From assembly GCA_000002435.2 (NCBI GenBank), contig CM018793.1: DNA of 64,000 nt. One strand, given 5' to 3'. The notes under the pieces are model-generated. The model did no database searches and was not told where the DNA came from. It saw only the letters and a program-made list of their open reading frames with translations. The translations under genes and the position numbers were made by a program. Positions 10,654 to 40,195 of the stretch are shown here, piece after piece. The stretch is from Giardia intestinalis (Eukaryota). Numbering within the stretch: position 1 is the first letter of the stretch; the number at the start of each line of letters is the position of its first letter.

Positions 10654-11145
10654 ATGCCATGGCAAGTTGACTCTTCGGTGTGCGAGACGCTACAAAGAGC
10701 CAGGGGTATATGCCAGATGGTTACTCAGGCTTATCTTGCACGCCAAGCATGGTTCAGTGATGGATCCTGTGCAAACAAGAAGCAAGCTTTGTCACCAGAA
10801 CTGCGCTTGTCGGGAAGGCAGATCAAAAAGCGCGTGCTGGATAGCACAATATGCATCCAACGTGCGTGGCGGCAGCGATTACGTACCGAAGCCCGTCTGA
10901 AGCATCGCGAAAGCTGCCGGATTGCTGCGGCCTTGGGGGGTTCAGCAGGCTACCTTTACATAGGAGGTCTTGCAGGCCCGAGATCTCTGGCTGCAGACAT
11001 CGTAGAGAAGCTGAGTAGGGATGGTAAGTATTCATCATCAGCCGCTGCCGCTGCTTTTGCGCGTCGCTGGAAGCTCCTCCGAGCATTTTTCGCACTCAAG
11101 CGGGCCCGATTCTATGCACCCCGCGAAGGTCGTAGGCGCAGCTAG
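10654..11145 (+). CDS. Hypothetical small protein with an IQ-like motif (ICIQRAWRQRLR); weak call.
   Basis: This ORF fills the 547-bp gap between L35 and S17e. The track start at 10621 is TTG, and the first ATG is 10654. No strong domain is present, and it could be non-coding. Confidence 0.3.
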   Translation: MPWQVDSSVCETLQRARGICQMVTQAYLARQAWFSDGSCANKKQALSPELRLSGRQIKKRVLDSTICIQRAWRQRLRTEARLKHRESCRIAAALGGSAGYLYIGGLAGPRSLAADIVEKLSRDGKYSSSAAAAAFARRWKLLRAFFALKRARFYAPREGRRRS

Positions 11146-11156
11146 AAGACGATCAT

Positions 11157-11570
11157 TTACTCCCGGGTGTCCCTGGCCCTCTTTCTCATCGTTGGGTCGA
11201 TGACCTTCAGAGAGGTGGACATGCATTTGAAGCCAATCGAGTCTATCATCTGCTGCGTTGCCCCAGAGACGGTGATGTTCTCTACATCAAACTCAGACTT
11301 CTTTGGGGCATAGTTGTCCCTACGCTCGCGCTCCTCCTCCTGGAGCCTCAGAGAGATGCCGTGGACGGGTCCCTTAACGACGCGATTCATGAGCGTTGTG
11401 ACATAGCCAGCAACCTTATTCCTCAGGCGCTTGGATGGTATTATAGCTACGTTCCTCTTCGAGCAAATAGCCTTGTTGTTCTGGAAATCCTTGGGTTTCA
11501 GTGATTCGTAATTGTTCTCAACAATCTTGCGCGCAGCACGCTTGATTGTCTTGGTCCTGACTTTGCCCAT
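11157..11570 (-). CDS. RPS17: 40S ribosomal protein S17e (eS17).
   Basis: MGKVRTKTIKRAARKIVENNYESL…IIPSKRLRNKVAGYVTTLMNRVVKGPVHGISLRLQEEERERRDNYAPK matches eS17 almost residue-for-residue. Confidence 0.9.
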   Translation of the reverse strand: MGKVRTKTIKRAARKIVENNYESLKPKDFQNNKAICSKRNVAIIPSKRLRNKVAGYVTTLMNRVVKGPVHGISLRLQEEERERRDNYAPKKSEFDVENITVSGATQQMIDSIGFKCMSTSLKVIDPTMRKRARDTRE

Positions 11571-11676
11571 CTCGCGGCGAGGCCACTTTTACTGTAAAAA
11601 GTCAATTTAAAATGGTTTATTATTTAAGCGTGCCCGCGGGCCGGTTTTTGGCAATTTTTACGCAACCAAATTCGGC

Positions 11677-13713
11677 ATGAACAACCAGACGGACCGTCAA
11701 AAGCGAATTGCCGAACGCAGGAAGAACATTCGTGCAAAGTTAGCAGAGCTAACACAAGACATGGATCTAACCGGGGAGAACGCAGGGGTGGTGATTTCGT
11801 CATCGGTTGACCAAATAGCAGTATCAAACGCAGAGAAAGTTGTGTATGACACACTAGCGGGGTTTAGGGACAAGACTAGCGGTTTCATGGCCCACGTCGA
11901 TGGCCTACGGACACGAGCTGACAAAGAAGCCTTAGTAATCTTTAACACAGACAAAGAGAGCGCCCTTATCAGGCGGCAGACGCTTGCCAATGAAAAGACG
12001 GCTTGCAATAAGATTGATGCCTCTTTCAGTATGCGGTGGTCGACACTCATGGAAAAGGATACCCCAGAGGAGCTTGCAGCTGGAATTCTAGAGCTTCGTC
12101 GATACACGTTGGAAATGTTGGAGTCCAAAGATAGAGTGGTGAGCGCATTCGAGGAGTATCTAGCCACAGTGGATGAGGATTATATCCGTCTAATTCGAGA
12201 ACAATCGAAAGAGATTGATGAAGTCATTACGTATATGCGAAAGGTACTGGGAGAACTAAAGAATTACTCCCTCGCCAAAATAAAGGAGTGCGAAGACGCA
12301 TTCAACGAAGATCGTGCTGCTTTTATTAAAGAACGCGAGGCAGGACTCGACAAGCTGCGCGACGAGATAACTGCAATAGAAAATGCGTCTCTTGATGCGC
12401 GCACTAAATTGGCAGAGGAATATAACGACAACGTGGCCTTACAGGTTCTGCAGGACTACGAGGAATATACCTCTCTAAAACGGCGCTTAGAGGCAGAGGG
12501 CGTTGCTCTTCGGCAGCAGCTAGAAGAGATGCGCTCTGTCTATCAATTGAACACAGACAAGCTGGAATATAACTACCGCTTGCTTGCTGCAAGGGACGTA
12601 GAGAGCCAGAATCTCATGGTCCAGCAAAAGAAAAAGATCTCAAAGCTTCAAAATCAGCTTACCGCCCTCATTGCGCGGCACACAACCATAGATAGTCAAC
12701 TCAGGGAGGAGAATCTAGAGCTATCAACATCTTACAAGCGAATGTCCAACTTATATTGCGACCTCCAGGCCAAGTTCAAGTTGTTTGAACGAGTAGACAC
12801 CCAAAAGTTTCGTGAACTCTGGGCATACCATGAGCGTCGCATAGCCGAGTCCCTCAGGGACCTTCTGTTAGCAGAGCAGATCATCAACGAGTCTGTGCTC
12901 TGTGTTGAGGCCAAGAAAGGGATTAATGAAAGCTCAATAGAGTATTCTGTGATGGTGATGCTTAAGAAGTTACAGCATGCAGCTGGAGTCGCTGAGTATG
13001 ACGACACCATGACCGTTACCAAGGAAAATTCAATCCTGGATATTACCCGCTCAATTGATCCCATTGCATCGTGCGCCTTGGGGCCTGTTGCAGCCTCGCG
13101 ACTTCTGACAGAGCTAGCGGCTGAAGCAAGCTTCCTTGCAAGTGATGACCTCTTAAAGATTATGGCACCAGGCGAGGAACTGACACCCAAGATGCGTACC
13201 GATGCACTCCTCTCCACCTTGGGAATACGAAATGCAAGTGAGCTTGACTTGTTGTTCACACACGTTACTGTTAACGGAAAGGGATTTGAACTATTGCCAC
13301 GAGACAAGATCGTGAACTCTCTGCGTGCATTTGCAGCTGAGGTGGTTGTTAAACGAGAGGCTGGGCGGCAAGGTGAGACCACTACAGCAGGAAGCTCAAA
13401 GAAGGGCGGCATCTGGAGCAACGCGTCCCTCAAGACCTTCTGGAGAGAGCTCGCCAACCTTATATCTCCGGAGAAACAGGTCCTTTGGAAAGCTTTGGAC
13501 GACTCCCTGATTCAGTACAAAGAGATCCTGCAGGCCCGGACAGACCTAGTGACGCATAATGATCAGCTAGCAGCTCAGAATGAAGAGTTGCGGAACCTCC
13601 TTCAACAATACATCTCTCAGGAGCGGCAAGCACTGAGTGTGGGCGGAACGATGGTTGTTCCTGAGACAAACAACACACAATTTGTCGGTAACGCTCAGCC
13701 AGCGCATGCTTGA
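11677..13713 (+). CDS. DRC1: Nexin–dynein regulatory complex subunit 1 (DRC1/CCDC164 homolog), an axonemal coiled-coil protein.
   Basis: YQLNTDKLEYNYRLLAARDVESQNLMVQQKKKISKLQ…EENLELSTSYKRMSNLYCDLQAKFKLFERVDTQKFRELWAYHERR and the C-terminal QVLWKALDDSLIQYKEILQARTDLVTHNDQLAAQNEELRNLLQQYIS align to the conserved DRC1 blocks (human YQLNQEKLEYNLQVLKKRD…, [25 protein letters not shown]…LQQYL). Confidence 0.82.
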   Translation: MNNQTDRQKRIAERRKNIRAKLAELTQDMDLTGENAGVVISSSVDQIAVSNAEKVVYDTLAGFRDKTSGFMAHVDGLRTRADKEALVIFNTDKESALIRRQTLANEKTACNKIDASFSMRWSTLMEKDTPEELAAGILELRRYTLEMLESKDRVVSAFEEYLATVDEDYIRLIREQSKEIDEVITYMRKVLGELKNYSLAKIKECEDAFNEDRAAFIKEREAGLDKLRDEITAIENASLDARTKLAEEYNDNVALQVLQDYEEYTSLKRRLEAEGVALRQQLEEMRSVYQLNTDKLEYNYRLLAARDVESQNLMVQQKKKISKLQNQLTALIARHTTIDSQLREENLELSTSYKRMSNLYCDLQAKFKLFERVDTQKFRELWAYHERRIAESLRDLLLAEQIINESVLCVEAKKGINESSIEYSVMVMLKKLQHAAGVAEYDDTMTVTKENSILDITRSIDPIASCALGPVAASRLLTELAAEASFLASDDLLKIMAPGEELTPKMRTDALLSTLGIRNASELDLLFTHVTVNGKGFELLPRDKIVNSLRAFAAEVVVKREAGRQGETTTAGSSKKGGIWSNASLKTFWRELANLISPEKQVLWKALDDSLIQYKEILQARTDLVTHNDQLAAQNEELRNLLQQYISQERQALSVGGTMVVPETNNTQFVGNAQPAHA

Positions 13714-13754
13714 TGACTGTCTAAAGTGATGAGTAAATTATGATGCGAATAATG

Positions 13755-14243
13755 CTAGACGAAGTAGTCGACGGCAAATGACCACTTTCCGGTGACGTTA
13801 TCAAAGGAAATGAATCGGGCGCCCATTTCCAGGGTTCTCTGCTCTACCTGCGTCTGAAGGAAGGATTCTTGCGGCCCGGGCAGGAAAAACTCGATGCGGA
13901 GAAGTGTAATAATCGCGTGCTTATTGAGCTTAGTGCCCCGCGGCGGTGCATTACCATTGGGGTAGACCTCGCAGCCGCCCTTCTCCAGCACCAGATCCTT
14001 GGTAAAGTCCACGCCAGATATGTCAGTTTCACCAGACCAGCATATCATTCCGTACTCATTTGACACCATGAAGTTGTTAACACGTTGCAGCTCGGTAAGA
14101 GACAATTTGCGCAGAAGTTCTGCAGAGGGATTGTAGCGATATCTATTGTCGAGGATGGGCCTTCCAGTAGGCACGGCTCGTGGACTATACACGCATTCAG
14201 AATCCATTCGAGCGAAGATATTGCTAGTGGCTAGAGGGGCCAT
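13755..14243 (-). CDS. Stand-alone Nup98/Nup145N autoproteolytic-domain (peptidase S59 fold) homolog, 162 aa, terminating at the position equivalent to the Nup98 scissile bond.
   Basis: NFMVSNEYGMICWSGETDISGVDFTKDLVLEKGGCEVYPNGNAPPRGTKLNKHAIITL…GARFISFDNVTGKWSFAVDYFV* compared with human Nup98 [60 protein letters not shown]…[24 protein letters not shown]. ATG at 14243. Confidence 0.6.
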   Translation of the reverse strand: MAPLATSNIFARMDSECVYSPRAVPTGRPILDNRYRYNPSAELLRKLSLTELQRVNNFMVSNEYGMICWSGETDISGVDFTKDLVLEKGGCEVYPNGNAPPRGTKLNKHAIITLLRIEFFLPGPQESFLQTQVEQRTLEMGARFISFDNVTGKWSFAVDYFV

Positions 14244-14256
14244 CCGAGCTTAAAAA
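14244..14256. promoter_or_regulatory. 13-bp head-to-head spacer (ccgagcttaaaaa) between the start codons of the Nup98-APD-like gene (minus strand) and the FG-repeat gene (plus strand).
   Basis: The ATG at 14243..14241 on the minus strand and the ATG at 14257 on the plus strand are separated by only 13 bp, with an A-rich initiator on the plus side. Confidence 0.5.
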
Positions 14257-15957
14257 ATGTATGGACAACAGTCCAATGGAGCACAGGGCTTTGGCCTGAA
14301 TTTTTTCAACCAGGGACAACAACCTACGCAGCAGAACCCTTTTCAAAACACACAGGGGAACTCGCTAAGCTCGACTTTTGGGAACGCGTTCTCAACGTCT
14401 ACCACGAATCAATTTTTGGGCAACAAACTGAATACGGGCCAAGGCAACGTGTTTGGCCAACCGCAGAATCAATTCACTACATCTAGTAGTAACTTTCTTT
14501 CGACACCTCAGGTAGGGGGGTTTAACAGCTCAATGAACAAGCTTTCCACAGGACCCGGGCAATCGTCCTTTGGAGGGTTTGGAACATCTTTTGGACAAAC
14601 TTATACAGGCACTACACAGCAAAGCAATTCATTTGGGACATTGGGCAGCCAGACAACCTCAATGGGCACTGGGATGTTTAATCAGCAACAAAATAACTTA
14701 TTTAGTGGGCCAATGGTTAACAACCAAGGATCCATGGGGACCACCATGGGATTTGGAAATGCTGTGGGCCAAATTTCAAATCAGAATGGAAATACCTGCA
14801 TTTATAATACGGCCAGCAACACCAACGCCGATGTAGTGTGTATCCAAATTATCGATAAGACAGATTTTGTTTACGGGTTGATTGATGGTACCGTTGCCAT
14901 AGGATCCACAACTGCCCCACAGGCGCCTATTCAGCAATTCAAGCTGTCGAGCCCAATTCTTTCTTTGGCGGTCAATAATAACAAGGAGATCTTTACTGGG
15001 ACAATGAACGGCCTGTATGTAATTCAGCAGGGCAGCCAGCCCGTGCAAATTGGCACCTATAGTGGCCCAGTCTTCCAGATAGCTACAATTGGCAAGTACA
15101 TCTTTCATAGTGAGATGGTGCTTACCCAGGCTGGGCCGAAGCGTACGATCCAGCAGAGCAAGAACTCCTGGAGTGCCCACGTGAATACCGGCAACCAAGA
15201 GAACCTCCCTATAGCGTATACGATTAAGGTAGGAATGTACGATGGAACTTACAAGCCGGAGCTAGATGTCGCTGAGGCAGCGTGTAGCGGGCACTTCTTC
15301 TTGGTGTCCACTGGAGCGACCACTGGAGGATCGCTTAGCTGCGTACTTATGGTCCCGAACATTAACAATGAGAGGCCGTTTATCGTCTACAATATTAAGC
15401 AGGGAGGAGTAGGCATAAGTTCAAGAATGAGCATTGCTGAAGATACATCCATTAGTGTGAAGCTCAGTACTATTGCTGGAAATAAGCGCCTAAGTTCTGG
15501 AGTAATTGGGTGTGGCTACGATAGAGTAGGGCTTAAGGCCATGGTAGTTACTAATGACAGATGCATGCTGGTGTATGACCTTAACAACAAACTGGTCAAT
15601 CAGAAACAGCTTCAATTCCCGATCTTACATGCATGTTATTCAGATCATCACAGGACGTTTCTTTTCACCGCTGGAACTGAAATAGCATACTATCAAACGG
15701 TTGGAAACAACACTGGCGAGTGGGGCAAGATCCCGGGTACGTCTTTTGGAGAGATATGCAGCTTCAGTATCGATGATCAGAAACTTGCTATAGCCGTCGG
15801 CAGCGCCAGTGCATTGTATCAAGGGACGCCGAGTCAAGGGGCGTCAGGTCAAGTCCGGGTCTCCATTGCTCTTGTGAACCTTCCGTCAGTTCGTCAGGGA
15901 GTATACCCCAACACTTATCATCTGATAAGCAACAAGACTCCTACCAATGTCATTTAA
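14257..15957 (+). CDS. FG-repeat protein with a C-terminal beta-propeller-like domain; candidate FG-nucleoporin.
   Basis: The N-terminal ~170 aa are N/Q/T/S-rich with FG motifs (GFGLNFF, FGNAFS, FGGFGTSFGQ, SFGTLG, GFGNAVGQ). The remaining ~390 aa are beta-rich with blade-like repeats (GLIDGTVAIG, ILSLAVNNNKEIFTGTMNGLYVI, GPVFQIATIGKYIFHSE). Confidence 0.7.
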   Translation: MYGQQSNGAQGFGLNFFNQGQQPTQQNPFQNTQGNSLSSTFGNAFSTSTTNQFLGNKLNTGQGNVFGQPQNQFTTSSSNFLSTPQVGGFNSSMNKLSTGPGQSSFGGFGTSFGQTYTGTTQQSNSFGTLGSQTTSMGTGMFNQQQNNLFSGPMVNNQGSMGTTMGFGNAVGQISNQNGNTCIYNTASNTNADVVCIQIIDKTDFVYGLIDGTVAIGSTTAPQAPIQQFKLSSPILSLAVNNNKEIFTGTMNGLYVIQQGSQPVQIGTYSGPVFQIATIGKYIFHSEMVLTQAGPKRTIQQSKNSWSAHVNTGNQENLPIAYTIKVGMYDGTYKPELDVAEAACSGHFFLVSTGATTGGSLSCVLMVPNINNERPFIVYNIKQGGVGISSRMSIAEDTSISVKLSTIAGNKRLSSGVIGCGYDRVGLKAMVVTNDRCMLVYDLNNKLVNQKQLQFPILHACYSDHHRTFLFTAGTEIAYYQTVGNNTGEWGKIPGTSFGEICSFSIDDQKLAIAVGSASALYQGTPSQGASGQVRVSIALVNLPSVRQGVYPNTYHLISNKTPTNVI

Positions 15958-16417
15958 TCTCAGATACAGCAAGTTTGTGTGTAGTAAATCGGGGTCTGCC
16001 TCATTTCAGTTCCACGGTTTCATGCACAACAGGAGGATGAAAGGAACCATGAAGTAGAAGTAAACCTGCAGATACGCATGTACAGCAGGGTAGTATTCAT
16101 GGTTAGGCAGCTAGAGCACTGTCTCGAGACTAGTATTCTTCTACTTTTAACAGAACAACAGTGACCTACAGTGTTACATCAATTAAAGAGGTGGCCCCTG
16201 AGGAGAGGTAATCTGAAAGTCTATAATTTTCTTTTACCAGAAGTTCTTAGATTATAAAGTAAGATGGGATTGATTTGTTAGGTGGATACTCAGTACTAGG
16301 GCCACCGGTCCCAGTAAACTAATGCTACGGAACTTACTACCTGGTTCTACGGATAGAAAGCCTATCAATTATAAAGCTGATTGAAGTCAAGGCTTTACCA
16401 AAAATATCAGCAGCCTC

Positions 16418-18334
16418 ATGGCCAGTGTAAGCCCCACCAGCTCTCCGCTCGAGAAACCTGAGGGAGAGGCCATCGTAGACGCCTTGGGTCCTGTACTTTA
16501 CCAAGGAGTGGGTGCAAGCATCTATGCACACATCACCCGCCCTGGCAAAGTTATTAAAGAGGTGTCGATTTACGGTCTTCAGGAAGCAAAGCTTAAAGCT
16601 TTGAGGATGTCGTTCCAGGACCTTGCGCGCATCCATCACCCAAACATCGTGCACTCCGAGTTCCCCATAGAACACGATGGATACTTATACGTGCAGATGG
16701 ACCGCTACTGCACATCTCTTGAGACTATGATACGTACTTCCAGGCTAAGAAGACTGCAATTTTCGAAGTCACAAATACTTACAATTGTTACCCAAGTCTC
16801 TGCCGCTCTCGCATACCTCCACAGTGCGCATAAGGACAGAGAATCTCTGTCAGCTATAGTACACGGAAGAGTTCAGCCTGCTAATATCCTTGTCAACGAA
16901 GATGGAAGACAGTTTGCTCTCTCCAATGCGGGCGTTCATAGAAGCAGGCAGAAGTTTAGCAATACAGTATACACGGCGCCAGAGATATTACTAGATGCTG
17001 ACCTTACGCCTGCAGCTGATATGTGGAGTCTTGGGGTCATTCTGTATGAGCTCGCAACAAAGAACAGACCTGAGTTTATAAGTGGCTGTATGCTCGAATG
17101 TGGCTTCGCTGAAGGATGGGTACCAGACTTAAGTAGTGTCGAGGATGTATTACTTAATAATATCATCCGACGCCTACTTATCTTTGATCCAATCAGTAGA
17201 ATGTCTTCATCTGAGCTATCATCCATTCTACAGGATAGCCAATCACTAGCTGATATAGAGAACTACTTTCGCCTAGATATTCTTGAAAGAGACGTCGTGC
17301 AACTGGCTTTGGAAATATCCATGCTGCATAGTGTTATAGAAAAAAGGCAGCTCCTACCAAGAAGCGATGGCCTCACGACATTAATGTGTGCAGCTCGCTC
17401 CGGAAATGTTGACGTCATAAAACAATTAATCGATACTGGTGAGGGAGTCCGTGCTCAAGATGCAGCGGGGTTAACAGCACTAATGCATGCAACTGTTAAA
17501 AAGCAGTATGATGCTATCAAGGTCCTTGTTGCATTTGAACATGGTATCTATGATAATGGTGGTCAAACAGCCTTGATGCACGCTGCTCAGATGAACGATC
17601 CTCAGGCCATTCACCTATTGGCACAATACGAGGCAGGGATGAAAACCAAGAGACTGAACTCCTTGGCAGGAATTTCTGTCAAGTCTAGAACAGCACTCAT
17701 GGGTGCCGCGGCACAAGGATTCACACGAGCAGTTGAAGCGCTTCTTCAGTACGAAGGGGGACTTCGTGATGAGCTTCATCAGACAGCGCTCATGTATGCT
17801 GCTAGCCAAAATCATCTTGAAGCGGTGCAGCTCCTAGCTTCTCGTGAGGGAGGGTTACAAGATAGTATGAGCCAAACAGCTCTCATCTTGGCTGTACAAC
17901 GTGGAAACGTGAATGTTGTTCCCTTCTTGCTTTGCGAAGTGGGCATGAAGAATAACATGGGCTATAGTGCGCTTATGATTGCAGCGAACGAAGGCCAGTT
18001 TGACATCGTGCAGCTTCTTGTTGAGCATGAAAAGGGGATGCGGAGCTTGACGCAAAGCACTGCGCTTATCAGTGCTGCATACAATAACCACTCTCAGATT
18101 GTGGAACTCCTTATACCCTACGAGTCTCGAATGCAGAATCGTCATGGTCTTACAGCACTGATGGAGGCAGCTAAGCACGGGTACATTGATGTAGTAAGGA
18201 TACTTGTGGATCATGAGAAAGGAGTTAAAGATAATCTAGGGCGGACAGCGCGTACTATGGCTCTTAAGTTTGGACACTCAGAGATTGCAGACTTTCTCTC
18301 TCAATATCCAGAAGAGCAATGTACTCTCCTGTGA
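16418..18334 (+). CDS. NEK-family kinase-like protein with C-terminal ankyrin repeats, predicted to be a catalytically dead pseudokinase (Giardia NEK/21.1-type expansion).
   Basis: Kinase-like N-terminal half (HHPNIVH…YLYVQMDRYCTSLE…VYTAPEIL…ADMWSLGVILYEL) with HGRVQPAN in place of HRDLKPxN and LSN in place of DFG. Followed by at least 8 ankyrin repeats (TALMCAARSGNVDVIKQLI, GLTALMHA…). Confidence 0.85.
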   Translation: MASVSPTSSPLEKPEGEAIVDALGPVLYQGVGASIYAHITRPGKVIKEVSIYGLQEAKLKALRMSFQDLARIHHPNIVHSEFPIEHDGYLYVQMDRYCTSLETMIRTSRLRRLQFSKSQILTIVTQVSAALAYLHSAHKDRESLSAIVHGRVQPANILVNEDGRQFALSNAGVHRSRQKFSNTVYTAPEILLDADLTPAADMWSLGVILYELATKNRPEFISGCMLECGFAEGWVPDLSSVEDVLLNNIIRRLLIFDPISRMSSSELSSILQDSQSLADIENYFRLDILERDVVQLALEISMLHSVIEKRQLLPRSDGLTTLMCAARSGNVDVIKQLIDTGEGVRAQDAAGLTALMHATVKKQYDAIKVLVAFEHGIYDNGGQTALMHAAQMNDPQAIHLLAQYEAGMKTKRLNSLAGISVKSRTALMGAAAQGFTRAVEALLQYEGGLRDELHQTALMYAASQNHLEAVQLLASREGGLQDSMSQTALILAVQRGNVNVVPFLLCEVGMKNNMGYSALMIAANEGQFDIVQLLVEHEKGMRSLTQSTALISAAYNNHSQIVELLIPYESRMQNRHGLTALMEAAKHGYIDVVRILVDHEKGVKDNLGRTARTMALKFGHSEIADFLSQYPEEQCTLL

Positions 18335-18744
18335 TAGGACGCAAATCGTGTAAATCAGATCAGTATGGTTACATTGCTAATTTCTGCATGCGGTTTTTCA
18401 TGTGCGGATTTAGATAGGCATAGTAATGGGACTACTACGAAAAAGGCAATCTGATAAACTTACATTAGCTAATAAAGTACCGACATTCAGCCTGTTCTTA
18501 AGTATGCGTGCCGTATTTTCCCTGAGTTCATATCCATTACTAAGTACCACAATTTGCAATTGTCACGTTCTCAGCCTGATAGCCGACCATGAGTATTAGT
18601 ATATAGCAGTGTCCAGGACATAGGAATGAGGTATATTTGCAAGGATGTGGACGCCACTGCTCACCATATTCCTAGAACCTATCACGCACCGGGGGCTCCC
18701 TCGCAATCGGTGCCCAGAAAGTCACGAGCAGGATTCATCGGCGC

Positions 18745-18751
18745 GTTTACT
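18745..18751 (-). terminator. Giardia polyadenylation signal AGTAAAC, 7 nt downstream of the VSP stop (tgaCTTAGGTAGTAAAC).
   Basis: The revcomp of gtttact is AGTAAAC. An identical 17-nt 3' end is found after the second VSP at 58316. Confidence 0.7.
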
Positions 18752-18758
18752 ACCTAAG

Positions 18759-20930
18759 TCATGCCTTCCCTCTGCATATGAACCACCAGCAGAGGAAGCC
18801 CACAAGGCCAGCCACGACAACCACCACAGCGACGGAGATACCTGCTATGGCGCCTGTGCTGAGGCCGCTTCTGCTGCCCCCGCTGGGCTTGGTGGACACG
18901 CACGCCTCACCCTCCAGCCTGTAGTCGTCCCCGCACTGGCCGCACTTGTTCTCCTCGCTGCACCTGATACACCCGTCGATACTGCAGGCGATGCACTGGG
19001 AGCCGTCTGTGTTCGGCCTCTTGCCCCCCTCTGTGCAGGCGGAGCACTTGTTGTCCATATCACAGTGTGAGCATCCAACAACGGCACATGCGAAGCACCC
19101 GCTCCCAGCCAGGTTGGGCTTGTTGTTGGCGCTACACGCTGTGCACGTGGCGGGGGCCATGCCAGGAGCCTCTAGCGCTGCTGGGGCCGTGCATGCTGTG
19201 CAGCCATATACCCCCACATATGCCTTAGCGGTGCTGCCAGCCCCTATCACTGTGCCAAGGGGGTTCTCGCAGGCCAGGACAGACTGATCAGTATTGGATG
19301 CCCCCGGGACCAGAAAGTACCGGCCGTTCTCGCTGGGGGCGGTGCACCTCCCTCCCTCGGCAGTCTTGCACATGTGGCTGCCAGGAGCCTTCTGAGTACT
19401 GTAGCAGCCGCCCATGTACAGGAAGAACCCGGCAGCACACCGGGTGCAGACGCCGTTCTCGCAGGTGTTGTCACCCTTAGTTCCTGTGCAGACGCCATCG
19501 ATGGGGAACGTGGCGGGGTCTCCGCACAGCGAGCAGTACTGGGAGAACGCCCCGGCGCTGTCAACGACGGTCGCCCCGCAGGTCCCAGACGTCCCCCCGC
19601 AGGCCGTGGGGTCCTCGCAGGCCTTTGTGCACTTCACCGGATTGGTTCCCTCCTTGCGATAGTTGAGCTTACAGGAGTTGCAGGTCAACGAGCCAGCGAA
19701 GGTGCACGTTGCACACCCATCGACTCCATCTGTCGGGTTATCACAGGGGACGCATGTGCCGGGGGAAGTGCCCCCTCTCAAGAAGAACCCGGTCTTGCAG
19801 GTTTGGCATTTGGTCTTGTCAGCTTTCTCAGAGCAGGTTGCGCAGTTCTCGCCACAGGCGTCACATGTGAAGCCGCTGTTGGTGTTCTTGATGTACCCCT
19901 CCAGGCACTCTGTGCAGGTCGGCGGTGTGGCGCCAGTCCTCGAGCACTTCTTACAGCCGACGATGCCCTGGTTCTTCTTCTCTTGCTCTGTCACTGTGTC
20001 GCTGCATAGAATACACGCTGTTGCGTCGTCTTTCATGAATAGCCCACTATCGGTGGCTTTGCAGCCGTCGTCTGTCTTTTCCACGCACGTCGTCGTCCCG
20101 TCGGCAGCAGTTCTTACCAGCTTCCCGTTACAATCGGTGCACCTCGGCTTTCCCGTGGCGTCACTATATTCGCATGCCGCGCACCCAGCTATGTCAGTAG
20201 CGCAGGCCTTGCACTCGTCTGCTTTTGGGTCTGCATAGCTATCACTACCACATCCACCAGCCTCTACACACTCAGTGCCCTTCAGGAACTTCCCCCCAAG
20301 GCAGGCGGTGCACTGGGTCGGCGTAGCAGACTCACACGTCAAACAGCCGGGTCCGCATTGCACACATGCACCATCCTTCGTAGCGTACCCTCCTTGGCAT
20401 GCAGTGCACGTGGCAGCCCCTGTACCGCCACCTGGCGCCGTGCATGTGTAGCAGCCCGCCACCCCCGTGACTCCGTCTCGCGGAGTGACGTCTGAGCAAA
20501 GCACGCACTCGTTGCCAGGGGCTACTGGGCTGGCCGGGTTCTGGAATAGATACGCGGCGCCTGCCTTGCAGGTGGTGCACACCCCCTTGTCGGCCGCCGT
20601 GCAGATCTCAGACCACTGGCTCGTCTTGTAGCACCCGCCCATGAAGAGGAAGTACCCGTCCCCGCACTTCCCGTAGGCAGTATCCGAGCCCGCCAACGCG
20701 GTCCCGTCTGCCCTGGTGCACCCGGCCGCCGCGGCCTGGGGGGAGCCGGGGGGCCAGCAGAAGCCGCCGACCGGGACGCCCCCGGCCCTGCACCCGGTGC
20801 AGATCTCGGAGTACCCGACCGTCTCGCACTTATCGGTCTGGCAATTCGCGGCATGGTCTCCGTCTGGCTGACAAGGCGCCGCGAGTGTGACTGCAAGCGT
20901 GGTTCCTACACACAGCAGTGGGTGCCGCCT
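18759..20930 (-). CDS. Variant-specific surface protein (VSP). It has the canonical TM and CRGKA tail, but no in-frame ATG precedes the signal-peptide-like segment, so it may be a 5'-defective or recombined copy.
   Basis: Ends …AGLVGFLCWWFICRGKA*, has many CXXC and GGCY motifs, and its 3' end is TGACTTAGGTAGTAAAC. The frame stays open up to plus position 21050 and encodes …RRHPLLCVGTTLAVTLAAPCQ… with no Met. The track start at 20696 is TTG; the first in-frame ATG (20642) falls inside the mature domain. Confidence 0.75.
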   Translation of the reverse strand, partial: RRHPLLCVGTTLAVTLAAPCQPDGDHAANCQTDKCETVGYSEICTGCRAGGVPVGGFCWPPGSPQAAAAGCTRADGTALAGSDTAYGKCGDGYFLFMGGCYKTSQWSEICTAADKGVCTTCKAGAAYLFQNPASPVAPGNECVLCSDVTPRDGVTGVAGCYTCTAPGGGTGAATCTACQGGYATKDGACVQCGPGCLTCESATPTQCTACLGGKFLKGTECVEAGGCGSDSYADPKADECKACATDIAGCAACEYSDATGKPRCTDCNGKLVRTAADGTTTCVEKTDDGCKATDSGLFMKDDATACILCSDTVTEQEKKNQGIVGCKKCSRTGATPPTCTECLEGYIKNTNSGFTCDACGENCATCSEKADKTKCQTCKTGFFLRGGTSPGTCVPCDNPTDGVDGCATCTFAGSLTCNSCKLNYRKEGTNPVKCTKACEDPTACGGTSGTCGATVVDSAGAFSQYCSLCGDPATFPIDGVCTGTKGDNTCENGVCTRCAAGFFLYMGGCYSTQKAPGSHMCKTAEGGRCTAPSENGRYFLVPGASNTDQSVLACENPLGTVIGAGSTAKAYVGVYGCTACTAPAALEAPGMAPATCTACSANNKPNLAGSGCFACAVVGCSHCDMDNKCSACTEGGKRPNTDGSQCIACSIDGCIRCSEENKCGQCGDDYRLEGEACVSTKPSGGSRSGLSTGAIAGISVAVVVVVAGLVGFLCWWFICRGKA

Positions 20931-21396: not shown

Positions 21397-24300
21397 ATGC
21401 TGATTCTCCTGTGTGCTGCTGCATGTCTCGCCGAGGCGTGCGGGACAGGACCTGCATGTGTTAACGGAGACTGCGCCTACGGGGACGGAGCACACTTCTG
21501 CCAGTGCAGGCGGGGCTGGGCGGGGGCTGCGTGCGACGCCCCCCGTGCAGGGTTCCGCAGGGTAACTACTAATACTGGCAAGGCATCCACAGACAGGGCC
21601 GTCAACTACGCTTGCCTCGTGAACGGGACGGAGTGCACAGAGTCGAACAAGTGCACCTACTACGCGGGGGCGTACTCGTGCGACCCCTGTCCTGCTGGCT
21701 TCGTGTCTTACGAGGACGAGTGCCTGCCGAGGGGCTGCTTCAACACAGGTGACCTCTCAGGACAGGAGGCAACGAAGGCCCCCTGCAACGGCCGCGGCCG
21801 CTGCCTCCTGAAGGACCCCGGGCTGGCCGGGCTGAGTGCTGACGACTACGCGTGCGACTGCTACCCGATCTACCGCGGGGGCCTCTGCCAGTCGTGCGAC
21901 GACGCCAACGCGATCGCTGTGGAAAGCTCTTCGTCTGACGCCCTCCCTACGTGCAATGCGCGGGCCTGCCAGGACTCGGATGGCATCGTGTGCTCAGGCC
22001 AGGGAACGTGCACCCTCGACGTGGGCCTCGATCGCGAATCGTACCGCTACCGCTGCAAGTGCAATGATGGCTACACACGCGTTGGGCACAGGTGCGTCAA
22101 GACGGAGTGCGTGGCCACGATCGACGGGTCCCCGGTCGTCTGCGGGGGCTTTGGAAAATGTATAGAAGAGGGCGACGGTGCCCCCAAGTGTGCCTGCGAC
22201 CCAGATGCAGTCCAGGTCGATAAGTTCTGTACCTCTCCTACATGCACGACCGAAACCCCTGCGAAAATATGTGGCGGAGTGGGCGCCTGTGTGCGTGACG
22301 GCGCTGGTTATAGCTGCGATTGCCGAGGGCTTGCCACAGGAAACTTATGTGAAAACTGTGTTCCAGAGAAGTCTGAGAGTATAGACGGCACCTGTGTTCC
22401 AGTGGGGTGTCTTACTTCCAACAAACAGAGCTCATGTACGAATAAAGGAGTCTGCGTCAAGTCCGACGGCGAGTACCACTGCCGCTGCCCGGACATGCTC
22501 ATTGCCGTTGACGGAGAGTGCACGTCCCCCGCGTGCATGGACGAGGAACTTGGGAAGGTCTGCTCGGGGCACGGCACGTGCAAGACGGACGACCCACGAG
22601 ACATAAAGTGTACTTGCGAAGCTGATTATACCTACGTCGCCCCGGGGCGTTGCATCTTGAGCACTTTGGTAGATAGCCCTGCCACGGTTTGCAGCGATCA
22701 TGGACGCATTGTCGTTAGTGCTGAGGCTCCTGATACGATGACGTGCCAGTGTTCGCCTATCTACACAGGAGCTAAGTGCGCAGAATGTGATCAACAGAAC
22801 GCGCAAGTGATTGGCGAGAAATGTATTGCAAAGAAGTGCATTGTGCAGCAACAGCCACCGGATCCACAGCCCAGTCTGCGCACGGCTACTGCTCAGGATA
22901 TCTGCGGGAACACAGGCACGTACACCACTTATGGTGATCCGAGCAATCCGTTCATCACATGCGTCCCTAAAGATGCTGATAGTGGAAATGTCTCCGCCTA
23001 CAACGGCACCTTCTCTGCTAAACCTGGATGTGTATTTATCAGTAAGATAGACAAGACAAGAAGATTCTTTTGTGGATTCCTTGAGAATATAACAGAAAAC
23101 CTGTCAACTGGTAACTTGCCTACGTGCGCTAAACCTTCCGAAAAACCCGATCTGCCTGAAACATGTACTCACTGTCCAACTGACTTTCACCTTGTACACT
23201 TTGGGGAAAACAATAGCACATGTATGCACAAGAGTTGTCACGATGGCAAATCCAGTCATATGTGGTACAATTACTGCGGCGGCGTGGGAGACTGTATTCA
23301 GAAGAAGGATAAAAGCGGATACGAGTGTGATTGTGGGACTGCTGCTAAATGGGATCCAAATTTGAAGGCGTGTGTTACTGATGCATGCAAGCTCAACAAG
23401 AGTCTTGCTGGCCCCTATGCACCAGACTACTGTATTCCTCAGTCTACCTTTACACTCGAATGCACTGTCGGACGGGACGCAACGTGGCAGTGTAATTGCA
23501 CTGGGGACTATGTTACGTACAACAAGACGTGCATTTCAAAGAGTAAGAACGCTGATCCAAAGACTCAGCGAGCAAGGGGACTCTGTGGCGGCCCCGGGGC
23601 GGGATATATAGACAGTACTGGAACCTGCGTCTGCAGCAATGGCTTCCTCAAGATCGGTGACATGTGCTACAGCTACGACTGCCTGCCAGTTGGCATATCA
23701 GATAACATAAGGAATCCGGATATCAACGTGCTTGTCTGCTCCGGAAAGGGGGTCTGCGCATACAACCAGCTGACTGGCCGGTACGGCTGCGAGTGCAGCG
23801 ACGGACTGGAGGCCTTCGGGGGCTACTGCACTCATCCAGGATGCGCCGGAAAGGTAATGCATAACGGAGAAATTAAGTATGTTGAGTGCAAAATCTACGA
23901 TGGGACAACTGGAGATTGTACAAACGATAAGGGCACATATTCCTGCAAGTGTACTACTCCGTATAGATCTGTCAATGGGATCTGTGTTCATCAGCGTTGC
24001 GTATCGTATGATAACGTCTATTGCGGAGGAGATGTCCTGGCTGCATGCGTGCAGGGGAGTAATTACTATTACGGGTGTGTCTGCTCCGAAGGCTATGAGA
24101 GGGGCCAGCTCAATTCGGAATGCATTCCAAGTAAGTGTGTTTACAGAAGGCTGCTGAGTGATCCCACTATTGCATGCAATGGGTTAGGAACATGTGGCGG
24201 AGAAGGATCTTTGTTGAAGAATAGGCGGTGTGAGTGCAAGTCTGGTGCTAAGCTAGTCACACTTAGAGATGTGAATGGGGAGTTGAGAGAAACATGTATA

Positions 24301-26454
24301 TTAAGTGAGTGCATTTCTAGTGAGGACGGAGTGGAACCGCCGATTATCTGTGGAGGACTAGGCAGTTGTGGGCCCACAGGATGCGTATGCGATCTGGGGA
24401 CAAAGTTATTTAAAAGGGCTTGCTTTGGCATCAACTGCTTTATTAACACCGTAGATGATAGCGGACAACTTGTTGAGTCTGTGTGCGGTGGCGAGACCGT
24501 TGGGGTGTGCACAAAGATAGCGTCGCACGGCGATCGTCGAGACTACGCTTGTAAGTGCAAGGACCCGAAGCCTGACGAGTATGAAGAACTTGATGGGTTC
24601 TGTCTACCAAAAGCTTGCATATTTGAAATCACAACCTTGACTAATCAGCAGGTGAGGACGATGTGCGGTGGAAAGCAGTTTGGAACATGCGTTCTTAATG
24701 CTACTCAATCATCCAAGTCATACTGTAAGTGCATAAATCGATATGACATTATTCAAATAACAAATGGAAAGTGTATGAAGAAAACCTGTCTTAGCGACTC
24801 TCTTTCTGGAGGTCCGGAGGGATACGTTGAATGTTCTGGACATGGGAAGTGTATAGGGGATCATATTGTGGGGTACTCGTGCAATTGTGACGAAAATTAT
24901 CAAACGGTTGCAGACGATCGCCGTTATTTGTGCGTACCAGCTGTCTGTGTTGTATCAGAGACAAATTCCAGTACTATATGCAACGGAAGAGGGACCTGTC
25001 AGTTCAAGACAGACCCAGGAAAGTGCGAGTGTAGGCCTGGGTATGATGGTACCAAATGTGAGACGTGTGCAAATGGCTACAAGGAACACACAGATGCACA
25101 GTGCTACCTCAATGGCTGTCCGGCAGACAATTGTGGCACGGAGGAAAATACTAGCGTAGGGGCTTGCCAATTTAGCGGAAACAGTTTTGCTTGCGTCTGC
25201 GTCAACTCGAGCTTCGTCGTTGACAGTGCTAGCAAGAAGTGCCGAAAATCCAGATGCGTTTGGTCGGATCCATACGATCAGACAGAAAAAACGTGCTATG
25301 GCATGGGTACGTGCAATGATAACGGCGAGGACACTGGGGCGTGTGTTTGCAACCCCGGGACAACCCTAGTCGGGACAAACATCTGTGTTTATAGCCAGTG
25401 CATCTCGGATGGAAGCGACCCCAAAGCAATATGCAAGGGGCGCGGGACATGCGTAGAGGGCCCTGTCGCCGGGACAGGACTGTGCAGATGCAACAGCAGC
25501 AGATACCGCACAGACAAGAAGACCGGCCAGTGCTTTGTCAAGGAGTGCTTCGGGGCACACGAGAGCATCCTGGCCGAGGTCTGCGATGGCGGTGGAACAT
25601 GCAGTGAAGACACTAAAAAGTGCAACTGTAGCGTAGACGGCTTCCAGAGCCTCGACGGCCAGAACGGCTGCGTGCACAGCAGCTGCGTCTCGTCGAACAA
25701 CAAGCTTTGTAGCGGCTTTGGGGCCTGCGAGAAGACCGGCGACACCTACGGCTGCCTGTGCGCAAGTTACTATACTCTGGTCGATAAGGACTGCATCCCC
25801 ACAAGGTGTCTCAAGGACGGGAAAGTCTGCAACGGCGGCGGCACGTGCTCCGGCGAGGGATCCTCTGCGACCTGTAGCTGCAACCAGGGCTGGGCTTCGC
25901 TGAATAACCTCTGCTACCCGGCAGCCTGCGTTTCCAGTGGGACGCTCTGCGGGGGGAATGGCAACTGTCCACTTTCCACAGATAGTACATGCGAGTGCAA
26001 GTATGGGTATGAAAGTGTTCTTGACCAGCTCTGCATCAGCAGCCAGTGCGTCCAGCGCGGCACCGACGGCACCGTGACGATCTGCGGGGGCAACGGCAAG
26101 TGCGTGTCTGAGAACGGCGTGACTCCCAGCTGCGTGTGCAACGAGGGCTTCTCTCTCACAAGCGACTTCGTCTGCGGAGTCCCTGCTCCATCCAACAAGT
26201 CATCAAGTACCATAACGATTGCAGTCGTGGTCGTCGTCCTCCTCGTCCTCGTTGCAGTGGCCGGCTTCCTCGTCTGGTGGTTCGTGATACGGCCCAGGAA
26301 GAGCGGTGAGTTGAGGGAGCGCGCCCCGCGGAAAGGCCCTAGCTTTAGTGGCTCGCAAAAGCTCAAGAAGCAAGCAAGCTCCAAGGCGTCGCTCCACGCC
26401 ACTGCGCCCCTACTGAGCCGGTCATCTCATGCCGGTTCTAGTGTCCAACTCTAG
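21397..26454 (+). CDS. High-cysteine membrane protein with tandem EGF-like/laminin-like cysteine modules (1685 aa), type I membrane topology.
   Basis: Signal peptide MLILLCAAACLAEA, then dozens of ~40-aa modules (C..G.C….C.C..GY…). A single TM (IAVVVVVLLVLVAVAGFLVWWFVI) and an ~80-aa cytoplasmic tail follow. ATG verified at 21397. Confidence 0.9.
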   Translation: MLILLCAAACLAEACGTGPACVNGDCAYGDGAHFCQCRRGWAGAACDAPRAGFRRVTTNTGKASTDRAVNYACLVNGTECTESNKCTYYAGAYSCDPCPAGFVSYEDECLPRGCFNTGDLSGQEATKAPCNGRGRCLLKDPGLAGLSADDYACDCYPIYRGGLCQSCDDANAIAVESSSSDALPTCNARACQDSDGIVCSGQGTCTLDVGLDRESYRYRCKCNDGYTRVGHRCVKTECVATIDGSPVVCGGFGKCIEEGDGAPKCACDPDAVQVDKFCTSPTCTTETPAKICGGVGACVRDGAGYSCDCRGLATGNLCENCVPEKSESIDGTCVPVGCLTSNKQSSCTNKGVCVKSDGEYHCRCPDMLIAVDGECTSPACMDEELGKVCSGHGTCKTDDPRDIKCTCEADYTYVAPGRCILSTLVDSPATVCSDHGRIVVSAEAPDTMTCQCSPIYTGAKCAECDQQNAQVIGEKCIAKKCIVQQQPPDPQPSLRTATAQDICGNTGTYTTYGDPSNPFITCVPKDADSGNVSAYNGTFSAKPGCVFISKIDKTRRFFCGFLENITENLSTGNLPTCAKPSEKPDLPETCTHCPTDFHLVHFGENNSTCMHKSCHDGKSSHMWYNYCGGVGDCIQKKDKSGYECDCGTAAKWDPNLKACVTDACKLNKSLAGPYAPDYCIPQSTFTLECTVGRDATWQCNCTGDYVTYNKTCISKSKNADPKTQRARGLCGGPGAGYIDSTGTCVCSNGFLKIGDMCYSYDCLPVGISDNIRNPDINVLVCSGKGVCAYNQLTGRYGCECSDGLEAFGGYCTHPGCAGKVMHNGEIKYVECKIYDGTTGDCTNDKGTYSCKCTTPYRSVNGICVHQRCVSYDNVYCGGDVLAACVQGSNYYYGCVCSEGYERGQLNSECIPSKCVYRRLLSDPTIACNGLGTCGGEGSLLKNRRCECKSGAKLVTLRDVNGELRETCILSECISSEDGVEPPIICGGLGSCGPTGCVCDLGTKLFKRACFGINCFINTVDDSGQLVESVCGGETVGVCTKIASHGDRRDYACKCKDPKPDEYEELDGFCLPKACIFEITTLTNQQVRTMCGGKQFGTCVLNATQSSKSYCKCINRYDIIQITNGKCMKKTCLSDSLSGGPEGYVECSGHGKCIGDHIVGYSCNCDENYQTVADDRRYLCVPAVCVVSETNSSTICNGRGTCQFKTDPGKCECRPGYDGTKCETCANGYKEHTDAQCYLNGCPADNCGTEENTSVGACQFSGNSFACVCVNSSFVVDSASKKCRKSRCVWSDPYDQTEKTCYGMGTCNDNGEDTGACVCNPGTTLVGTNICVYSQCISDGSDPKAICKGRGTCVEGPVAGTGLCRCNSSRYRTDKKTGQCFVKECFGAHESILAEVCDGGGTCSEDTKKCNCSVDGFQSLDGQNGCVHSSCVSSNNKLCSGFGACEKTGDTYGCLCASYYTLVDKDCIPTRCLKDGKVCNGGGTCSGEGSSATCSCNQGWASLNNLCYPAACVSSGTLCGGNGNCPLSTDSTCECKYGYESVLDQLCISSQCVQRGTDGTVTICGGNGKCVSENGVTPSCVCNEGFSLTSDFVCGVPAPSNKSSSTITIAVVVVVLLVLVAVAGFLVWWFVIRPRKSGELRERAPRKGPSFSGSQKLKKQASSKASLHATAPLLSRSSHAGSSVQL

Positions 26455-27696: not shown

Positions 27697-29433
27697 ATGC
27701 TGGTATTATTGTTCTTCAACATGTTTTCTAACAATCTGATACCTCAGACAGACGACAGGTCTACTCTAGACAGGAGTACCTACTATGTTGCCTGTGAGGA
27801 GGACCAATCTGATTGTGTGGAAAATAAGTGCGTTATATTCGCTCACGAGAGGCCTCTATGTACCGAATGCAAGTCTGGAAAAATCCCTATCGACGGAGAG
27901 TGTGTCGACGCCAACAGTGTGCCAGGGACAACTGTGTGTGAACAAGAAAATGTTAACGGCGGTGGAACACGCTGTAAGTCATGTTCTAGTGGAAATGGAA
28001 GTAGGAATACTAGTGACGGTGTAGGTTATTTTCTATTTTACGGGGGCTGCTACAATAATGATGAGTGGCCTGGCACAGACATCTGCAAGACCGTTTCAAA
28101 CGGGGTGTGCACAGTTTGTGATACTGAGTATGGGGCCGTTTTTACAAATTTAGATACTACCACCGATGAAAGGTGTATCCTATGTAGTGATACACTATCC
28201 GGAATGGAAGGCTGTGCGACTTGTGTGTCCCTTCCTCAGAATCCTGCGCCAGATAATGCAAAGGGCGCCGCCAATCTCCAATGTACTTCCTGCTTAGATG
28301 AGACCAAAGCCCCAATCGATGGAGTATGCGCAACCTTTGGCTCTAACAGGTGCAGAAATGGATACTGTACTCATTGTGTAGTTGGTTATATTTATCATAG
28401 GGGCGGGTGCTATAGTAATAACAAGGAGGGAACTAAAATATGTGCTGAGGTCAACCAAATAGAGATAGGTGGCTATTCTGCTTGTAAGCAGTGTACCAAC
28501 ACTAGTGAGGCCCCACACAATGGAAACTGTAGGCAGGTAAGTATTTTACATAGCTGCAGAAAAGATAGTTCAACCGGAATGTGCGAAGCTTGCAACCAGC
28601 ATTTCTATGGCCGCCCTATCTTCCTGTACAAAGGCGGCTGCTACGTCATCACTGACCCCCTTGGAGACACCATATGCAAAAAGACGTTCAACGGTAAATG
28701 TACTATTTGTAATGGGGACCAAGGATACTTCATGAAGGATTCGACATGTACTAGATGCGATGAGTTTGTCCCTGGTTGCGCTGTGTGCACCCCTAGCCCT
28801 GATGCCTCCAGTGCTCCTGTGTGTGCCAGCTGCAGGGCCGGTAAATATGCAACCGTAGACGGTGCTTCCTGCGTCGACTCATGTCCATCGGGTAGCTCAG
28901 GTAGCTGCGATAAAAGTAATGTCTGTAGCTGTAAGTGCAGTACAGGAACCTACTTGGATGCCGCCACAAATACATGTAGCGCATGCAATTCAGCTTGCGC
29001 AGACTGTATAGGCCCTGAACCCGATAAGTGTACATCGTGTGCTTCAGGAAAATATCTCAAGCGCGATGCATCTGGTGCCATTGAATGTATAGATTCTGTT
29101 GACTGTGGTGAGGGGTATTATGCAGATAGTGCTACCAACACTTGTTCTTCGTGTGGTATTGACAAGTGCCAGACGTGTGCTTCTGATAGTGGTGTGGTCA
29201 AGTGTATGAAGTGCCTTTCTGGGTATCTTTCCATCGATAGCCTTTCATGTCAGTCCCAGTGTGATGGACCAAATCAGCAAGGACATGCCAATGGCAAATC
29301 CGTTTGCGAATGCATTGCAGGGGCTTATCTGGAGGGCTGTGTCCAGTGCGACTCAGCACGCCTGGAGTGGGTCCAGGGTCTGATCACTGCACAAGTGCTC
29401 CTCGGGAAAGTACACCAAGATGAATGGTTCTGA
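27697..29433 (+). CDS. High-cysteine membrane protein, N-terminal ORF segment of a frameshifted gene (paralog of the HCMP at 40196).
   Basis: Signal peptide MLVLLFFNMFSNNLIP, then cysteine modules collinear with 40196..42025 (CTECKSGKIPIDGECV, GGCY repeats). The frame closes at 29433 inside a module. Confidence 0.7.
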   Translation: MLVLLFFNMFSNNLIPQTDDRSTLDRSTYYVACEEDQSDCVENKCVIFAHERPLCTECKSGKIPIDGECVDANSVPGTTVCEQENVNGGGTRCKSCSSGNGSRNTSDGVGYFLFYGGCYNNDEWPGTDICKTVSNGVCTVCDTEYGAVFTNLDTTTDERCILCSDTLSGMEGCATCVSLPQNPAPDNAKGAANLQCTSCLDETKAPIDGVCATFGSNRCRNGYCTHCVVGYIYHRGGCYSNNKEGTKICAEVNQIEIGGYSACKQCTNTSEAPHNGNCRQVSILHSCRKDSSTGMCEACNQHFYGRPIFLYKGGCYVITDPLGDTICKKTFNGKCTICNGDQGYFMKDSTCTRCDEFVPGCAVCTPSPDASSAPVCASCRAGKYATVDGASCVDSCPSGSSGSCDKSNVCSCKCSTGTYLDAATNTCSACNSACADCIGPEPDKCTSCASGKYLKRDASGAIECIDSVDCGEGYYADSATNTCSSCGIDKCQTCASDSGVVKCMKCLSGYLSIDSLSCQSQCDGPNQQGHANGKSVCECIAGAYLEGCVQCDSARLEWVQGLITAQVLLGKVHQDEWF

Positions 29434-39251: not shown

Positions 39252-40195
39252 ACATGGGCATAAGGCAGCCAGGATACGATGTCGCAGACGATGAGCCCAC
39301 AGAAGCGTCGGGAATACTTGACACAGAGTACAGCGATGTGGTTTCAGAAGTATCGGCTTCCCTTAGTGGCGGTGCTAAGAATCATGCAAGGAAGCCACCG
39401 GTTATTTGCATAGGTGATCTTTACTTTTCGCGGTACAATCCTCTTTTCCACCACAGAGACACCTTACAAATACAGAGGCTTGACAGTAATAGGGGCAGTC
39501 CCTGTTCTGGCATCTGACACCTGAGCCATCCTATAGATTCCACCCTCCGAGGAGCCAGAGAGCCCAAGAGACACCCCGTCTCTGGCAGAGACCACCGATG
39601 GGCAACAGCACATAGGGCCCTTGTCCCAGCACTCATCCCTGCTGGCTAGGCTGTCTACGTCTGCATACACAAGACCAGCATGCCTGTTTCACTGAGCTGC
39701 ACCAAAGAACTGATTGTTGGCCGCACGACTGAGCCCATGAGACACTTGGCGATCCTCCATAAGGCTCAAGGCCGTGCTGCATTCCGAGTGGAGCCCGCAG
39801 GCCCTCATGGTACCTGATGCTCAGAAGTTATGTCAGTCGTTGCCCGATACAGTACTCCAGACAAGAAGCATGTAGTCCAACCCAGGCAGAGGAACGCTCC
39901 TCGAGTCCCAGATCAGCGCACGGTAGACGGGTGTTAAAGCCCGAAAAAGCCATTCTCCCGAAGTAGGACTGTGTCGGCACCAGAGCCAGAATAGTACGGT
40001 GTGTTCTGGATGGTTGCCTGCTCGGACACTGGCCGGTGAGATCAGGTGCTAACCACTCCCCCACCCGGTATCTGGACATAGAGGCCCCGGTGTGCGCACA
40101 GTGCCTCGCCGAGTGGCCCGTTGCGACCGACTAGAGGAGCCCTTCACACGTATTGTAAAGACGAGTGTTCACAATTGATATTCAAAAAATCGCTG

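Follow-up and report, generated by a model that had tools for sequence, protein, structure and literature searches.

A stand-alone Nup98-type autoproteolytic domain and an FG-rich beta-propeller protein encoded head to head in Giardia intestinalis: candidate nuclear pore components

The stretch of DNA analysed here (the window, 64,000 nucleotides of contig CM018793.1 in the Giardia intestinalis assembly GCA_000002435.2) carries a divergently transcribed pair of genes whose products we consider as candidate nuclear pore components. On the minus strand (13755..14243) lies a gene for a 162-amino-acid (162-aa) protein (XP_001705258.1/A8BRG2) related to the autoproteolytic domain (APD) of Nup98/Nup145N, supported as a gene by its open reading frame (ORF), its match to Pfam PF04096 and the substitution pattern among its orthologues. 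On the plus strand (14257..15957) lies GL50803_006139, annotated as encoding a hypothetical protein, whose 566-aa product combines a phenylalanine-glycine (FG)-rich N-terminus with a predicted beta-propeller; here the ORF, the identity to a public protein and the orthologues are the supporting evidence. The window comes from Giardia duodenalis (intestinalis) WB, and public Giardia proteins match the two gene products at 100% identity. The ORF coordinates and the head-to-head layout given in the original prediction for this DNA proved correct, the two start codons being separated by the 13 bp ccgagcttaaaaa (14244..14256), of which an A-rich element touches the ATG of the FG gene and which presumably serves as a shared bidirectional initiator.

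The 162-aa protein matches PF04096 (Nup98-96 autopeptidase, S59) with an E-value of 1.2e-22 and a score of 81.1 bits against a gathering score of 28.4, residues 33–161 covering positions 2–143 of the 148 in the profile. Homology to the APD had been claimed in the original prediction, which was to be given up if no S59/Nup98-C profile match could be found; the match obtained is well above the Pfam cut-off over the whole domain and is accompanied by matches to solved APD chains (Chaetomium and yeast Nup145N, E 1.3e-8 to 8e-7; Nup116, 1e-5; vertebrate Nup98, 3e-5). The full-length profile match points to an S59 fold, and the Pfam and PDB alignments place the domain proper at residues 33–161 (13761..14147, minus strand), the last of which is the Phe at the P1 position of the cleavage site. 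The 32 residues ahead of it are non-repetitive and, as had been predicted, include no FG repeat; the FG or GLFG domain and the GLEBS segment that precede the APD on the same chain in a full Nup98-type protein are thus lacking. Judged by its sequence the protein is a complete Nup98/Nup145N-family APD reduced to the bare domain. The ratio of non-synonymous to synonymous substitution rates (dN/dS) against the orthologues is 0.10–0.14, indicating purifying selection, and four of the five Giardia orthologues share the start methionine, the fifth (P0005) starting at M13. Two APD variants from Logan assemblies (P0006 and P0024) have C-terminal halves swapped for unrelated sequence ending ...GRPIHFL; these look like frameshifts arising from assembly or sequencing errors, not isoforms. 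A profile search via a word index for further APD genes returned only sequences of the G. duodenalis complex and one unrelated metagenomic fragment, and a scan of metagenome DNA for a G. muris APD found none.

The APD gene ends, on the minus strand, with gcc gtc gac tac ttc gtc tag, so that its last residues (Y160-F161-V162 and the stop; 13755..13766, minus strand) are the equivalent of the HF/S cleavage motif, the slash marking the scissile bond. This assignment comes from the sequence, from the alignment of chain ends and from the five orthologues: Giardia ...AVDYF aligns on ...SVEHF and ...KVNHF with Y160-F161 on the H-F of the motif, F161 falls on the residue with which the cleaved chain 5cww_A ends, and V162 stands in the P1' place, after which the gene stops. 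The protein was originally said to end at the scissile-bond position, one residue after it, and to have its catalytic His replaced by Tyr; it does stop one residue beyond that position (...DYF/V and stop), and the alignments with PDB chains do place Y160 at the His. All five Giardia orthologues end in DYFV or DYFA, the P1' residue being Ala in two of them. Ala99 is aligned to the Lys of the segment K-PP-x-G-x-G-L-N and the Asn of this segment is retained (N107). According to a preprint on an Entamoeba Nup98-like protein the residues implicated in cleavage are Lys, Asn, His and Phe (bioRxiv 10.64898/2026.09.13.750810), and from the full autoproteolytic set (His-Phe followed by Ser or Thr, together with Lys and Asn) the Giardia protein has lost the Lys, the His and the Ser/Thr. 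With these residues lost and nothing to cleave off, the Giardia APD can act only as a binding module, being catalytically dead and constitutively in a cleaved-like state.

The protein can be compared with known systems. Its best matches are to cleaved Nup98/Nup145N (PDB 5cww, 5hb6, 3kep, 1ko6 and 2q5x; E 1.3e-8), which end at the same position less one residue, but there the end arises when a Nup98-Nup96 precursor cuts itself by means of His, Lys, Asn and a Ser/Thr nucleophile, whereas in Giardia it is encoded in the gene, and the His, the Lys and the nucleophile are replaced by Tyr, by Ala and by Val or Ala respectively. The C-terminal domain (CTD) of yeast Nup116/Nup100 (PDB 2aiv, 3pbp, 3nf5 and 7tbi; E about 1e-5) is similar in that the APD lies at the very C-terminus and serves in docking only, although in the yeast proteins it shares its chain with long GLFG domains (and in Nup116 also with GLEBS) as against the 32 preceding residues in Giardia. 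A protist APD module without catalytic residues is also described for the Nup98/96-related protein of Trypanosoma brucei, TbNup158 (bioRxiv 10.64898/2026.09.13.750810), but that module remains part of a single uncleaved chain, flanked by an FG domain and a Nup96-like part, whereas the Giardia APD stands alone. A separate observation concerns a 946-bp contig from JGI metagenome 3300037891, in which an APD ORF from a eukaryote (L003:1-738) ends ...VPHF with the stop codon directly after the P1 Phe, which indicates that gene-encoded 'pre-cleaved' APD ends exist outside Giardia; the context is odd, as upstream the frame runs on without a stop into EGF-like sequence rich in Cys.

The FG domain of the neighbouring protein (residues 1–171; 14257..14769, plus strand) was delimited from its composition and from the conservation of its Phe residues. 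It is made up almost wholly of Gly, Gln, Ser, Asn, Thr and Phe, with 18 Phe, eight FG motifs, two Tyr and only two charged residues (both Lys). Among five Giardia orthologues (71–86% identity) the Phe is invariant at 17 of its 18 positions as compared with 74 of the 153 other positions (Fisher p 1e-4), Ser, Asn and Thr being invariant at only 23–36% of theirs, and the dN/dS of 0.10–0.12 again indicates purifying selection. The segment therefore has the low charge, the FG motifs, the conserved Phe and the variable spacers by which an FG nucleoporin is recognized in sequence. Anchored Phe, drifting uncharged spacers and the use of Phe and not Tyr are the signature of the cohesive FG-nucleoporin domains, unlike prion-like domains. 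None of the other ORFs of the window has a segment resembling it. In a single-sequence model of the full-length protein the FG region has a predicted local distance difference test score (pLDDT) below 50, but this says nothing on disorder since nearly the whole model is equally poor (mean 31.8).

The remainder of the protein (residues 172–566; 14770..15954, plus strand) could be assigned only through a structure model. No Pfam family matched the 566-aa protein above threshold, and residues 172–566 gave only sub-threshold matches to propellers (the Vps41 propeller in Pfam, E 0.002–0.01, and PDB chain 7zu0_F, E 5e-4, with WDR35, BBS2 and EML among the other Pfam matches); comparison of the propeller profile with itself revealed no significant internal repeat (E 0.17). 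An AlphaFold model of the domain, built from a six-sequence alignment that included the G. muris orthologue, reached a pLDDT of 70.1 and a predicted template modelling score of 0.76, with about 28 beta-strands and a confident region at approximately residues 186–520. Foldseek returned 1652 PDB matches at E<=1e-3 and, among the matches listed, 50 of 50 were beta-propellers, mostly of the WD40-repeat kind. The model thus predicts a closed, generic WD40-type beta-propeller with four-stranded blades which, from its dN/dS of 0.02–0.15, is under purifying selection, and together with the composition of the N-terminus it upholds the original description of an FG-containing, Asn/Gln-rich segment followed by a propeller. 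A 140-aa antisense ORF (14776-15198, minus strand) wholly within this gene is probably spurious.

Attempts to place the propeller in a known family were negative. None of the 60 best structural neighbours was Nup82, Nup88, Nup159 or Nup214, and a C-terminal coiled coil is missing from the model; identity with Nup82/Nup88 was rejected on both counts. Rae1/Gle2 and Bub3, seven-bladed propellers that bind GLEBS (PDB 7vpg and 1u4c), are among the closest systems compared, and orthology to Rae1/Gle2 was rejected at the sequence level. When 1.84 billion representative proteins were searched exhaustively with HMMER, the propeller profile matched Giardia sequences only, plus weakly similar bacterial and archaeal proteins with BNR/YVTN-like repeats. 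The G. muris orthologue (GMRT_10151, 563 aa, E 2.5e-15) has a similarly FG-rich and nearly uncharged N-terminus (19 Phe, 11 FG and no Tyr in 182 aa), and the arrangement of FG domain followed by propeller therefore predates the split between G. duodenalis and G. muris.

Three other lineages of the G. duodenalis complex retain the divergent pair, making four in all, at nucleotide identities of 86%, 76% and 73% and with gaps of 13, 12 and 13 bp (loci L004, L005 and L001, all from Logan assemblies); TAAAAA is conserved immediately before the ATG of the FG gene in all three. By inference from known Giardia promoters, both genes may be transcribed divergently from this one short A/T-rich initiator in the G. 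duodenalis complex, a weaker proposal than the gene assignments themselves. The only APD gene detected adjoins the only FG-rich gene in 64 kb, and no other pore gene was found in the window. If a few dozen pore genes are assumed among about 5000, the chance that a pore gene has another as its immediate neighbour is about 1%, although it should be noted that this is an after-the-fact estimate. In G. muris the FG-propeller gene lies instead 6 bp downstream, on the same strand, of a gene for a 443-aa Ulp1-family SUMO protease (L002:6663-7994, plus strand, on CM016928.1; Pfam Peptidase_C48, E 8.8e-10). Nuclear pores are the tethering site of Ulp1 in yeast and of SENP2 in human, and the arrangement in G. 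muris could be a second pore-related adjacency or could be chance.

We favour a reading in which both proteins are pore components and give it a probability of roughly 0.55. The FG-propeller protein would be an FG nucleoporin of the Giardia lineage whose propeller anchors its FG domain, and the APD protein would serve as a small adaptor, docking in the pore in the manner of the APDs of Nup98, Nup116 and Nup145N, either on a propeller or on an N-terminus of Nup96 type. The weakest step in this scheme is that the APD would bind the propeller encoded next door, thereby rejoining non-covalently the anchor and the cohesive FG repeats that Nup98 has in one chain. It is proposed by analogy with Nup116-Nup82 and Nup98-Nup88, the complexes of Nup82, Nup116 CTD and Nup159 and of Nup88 with the Nup98 APD (PDB 3pbp, 3tkn and 7mni) being the precedent for docking of an APD on a beta-propeller; Nup82 and Nup88 differ in lacking FG repeats and in having a coiled coil at the C-terminus. 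Direct interaction of the two proteins is put forward as a tentative idea that we would not bet on, and joint replacement of Nup98 by the pair is no more than plausible. The original interpretation, with the function of Nup98 shared out over separate polypeptides, is supported in part.

Several observations weigh against this assignment. The propeller is not specifically like the Nup82/Nup88 propellers that bind APDs, and the FG domain is short (171 aa) and has neither a GLFG tetrapeptide nor a charged, GLEBS-like segment. A known APD binds its partners via one surface, which makes it difficult to say what a bare APD would bridge. The pairing is absent at the G. muris FG-propeller locus, where tblastn over the flanking 8 kb in each direction detected no APD. 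Genes called in Giardia commonly lie 6–36 bp apart (17 and 36 bp among divergent pairs), and a spacing of 13 bp therefore reflects the genome as a whole and does not point to any special tie between the two. Searches of the accessible literature recovered no localisation, expression or interaction data for either protein.

The absence of the pairing in G. muris and the frequency of short intergenic gaps are also what would be expected if the two proteins were both pore components but functionally independent, their adjacency being an accident of a compact genome. The APD would then be a shrunken remnant of Nup98 that binds a Nup96- or Nup88-type partner, and the FG-propeller protein a separate, lineage-specific FG nucleoporin, which would suit a propeller with no particular likeness to Nup82/Nup88. 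We regard this as possible but on balance unlikely, as it leaves to chance the coincidence that the sole APD gene detected stands beside the sole FG-rich gene in 64 kb, and that the two have stayed together across approximately 27% nucleotide divergence. A more radical departure is that the 566-aa protein is no nucleoporin but a WD40 protein of some other pathway (a vesicle coat, an RNA granule or a flagellar/ciliary gate) with a low-complexity N-terminus. The lack of a family assignment, the sub-threshold matches to Vps41, WDR35, BBS2 and EML propellers and the restriction of relatives outside Giardia to weak bacterial and archaeal repeat proteins would all fit, and we know of no nucleoporin in which an FG domain comes first and a propeller second. 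Such a protein would not, however, be expected to prefer Phe to Tyr (18:2, and 19:0 in G. muris), to carry almost no charge and to conserve its Phe while the spacers drift, or to adjoin a Nup98-family gene, and we consider this explanation improbable.

The stand-alone state of the APD could in principle be an annotation artefact, if the 162-aa ORF were a single exon of a longer gene whose FG repeats were joined to it by cis- or trans-splicing. Trans-splicing does occur for a few Giardia genes, and the plus strand within the FG gene contains a loose 3'-splice-like sequence, ACACACAG, and a GTATGT. These two elements are in the wrong order, however, and on the strand of the APD gene a search with three Giardia intron motifs (minus strand, window positions 11000-19000) gave no match. 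As there is in addition an in-frame stop codon two codons upstream of the APD ATG, and as the length and end of the ORF are conserved among the orthologues with the start of the next gene only 12–13 bp away, we conclude that there is no hidden FG-coding exon; splicing that joins FG to APD, in cis or in trans, was rejected and has only the slightest chance of being correct. For the origin of the proposed pair of pore components, a single inversion could be envisaged in which the FG-coding 5' part of an ancestral Nup98 gene with both FG and APD was turned round and fused in frame to a divergent WD40 gene. This would have left the APD gene standing alone and head to head with the fusion, the function of Nup98 being rebuilt non-covalently by binding of the APD to the propeller. 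An inversion would explain jointly the APD without FG repeats, the order of FG domain and propeller and the 13-bp divergent layout. As the FG-propeller fusion is present in G. muris, it would have to predate the species split, with adjacency lost later in the G. muris line. We think this history as a whole an outside chance.

The surroundings of the pair can be described briefly. A gene convergent with the APD gene (11677-13713, plus strand) encodes an NYD-SP28/CCDC65 (DRC2)-like axonemal protein (Pfam PF14772 and PF14775), the 41 bp between the two stop codons containing AGTGAT/AGTAAAT polyadenylation-like motifs. Downstream of the FG-propeller gene, 16418-18334 (plus strand) encodes a kinase domain followed by a long array of ankyrin repeats, of the NEK/ankyrin type that is expanded in Giardia, and this neighbour is syntenic in loci L001 and L005. 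Five ORFs with variant-specific surface protein (VSP) domains were found in the window (18759-20696 on the minus strand, 27697-29433, 40121-42025, 53056-55470 and 56174-58315), and a 1685-aa ORF (21397-26454) has one match to the Pfam family EGF_2. The idea of a pore-gene cluster in the window was rejected, the other large ORFs being of VSP/high-cysteine, ABC transporter, MFS transporter, NEK-ankyrin kinase and CCDC65-like types.

The APD gene as such is not new, being listed as 'Nucleoporin autopeptidase' in NCBI and UniProt (under the accessions given above). Nup96-98 is marked as present in Giardia in the screen with hidden Markov models of Neumann et al. (2010; PMC2951903), and the supplementary alignment of that study includes an entry "nup98_giardia", which may be this gene. 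Our literature searches brought up no paper that comments on the lack of FG repeats, the 'pre-cleaved' end written into the gene or the FG-propeller neighbour, and none on Giardia FG nucleoporins; searches on both the gene and the protein identifiers returned nothing. Neither the neighbour nor the split layout seems to have been described before.

The Giardia nuclear pore is almost uncharacterised, comparative screens recovering only a handful of candidates, and the pair described here provides good but unproven candidates for some of the missing parts. To our knowledge, everywhere else examined the cohesive FG domain of the permeability barrier is covalently tied to its APD anchor in Nup98. 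If the proposed assignment is true, with a bare 162-aa anchor and the FG domain carried on a propeller next door, the covalent FG-APD linkage would be dispensable; should an inversion also prove to be the origin of the pair, it would be a clean example of the re-wiring of domains by one rearrangement in a compact genome. The two proteins would moreover offer two small, easily tagged entry points to the whole Giardia pore, and with them cheap experimental access to it.

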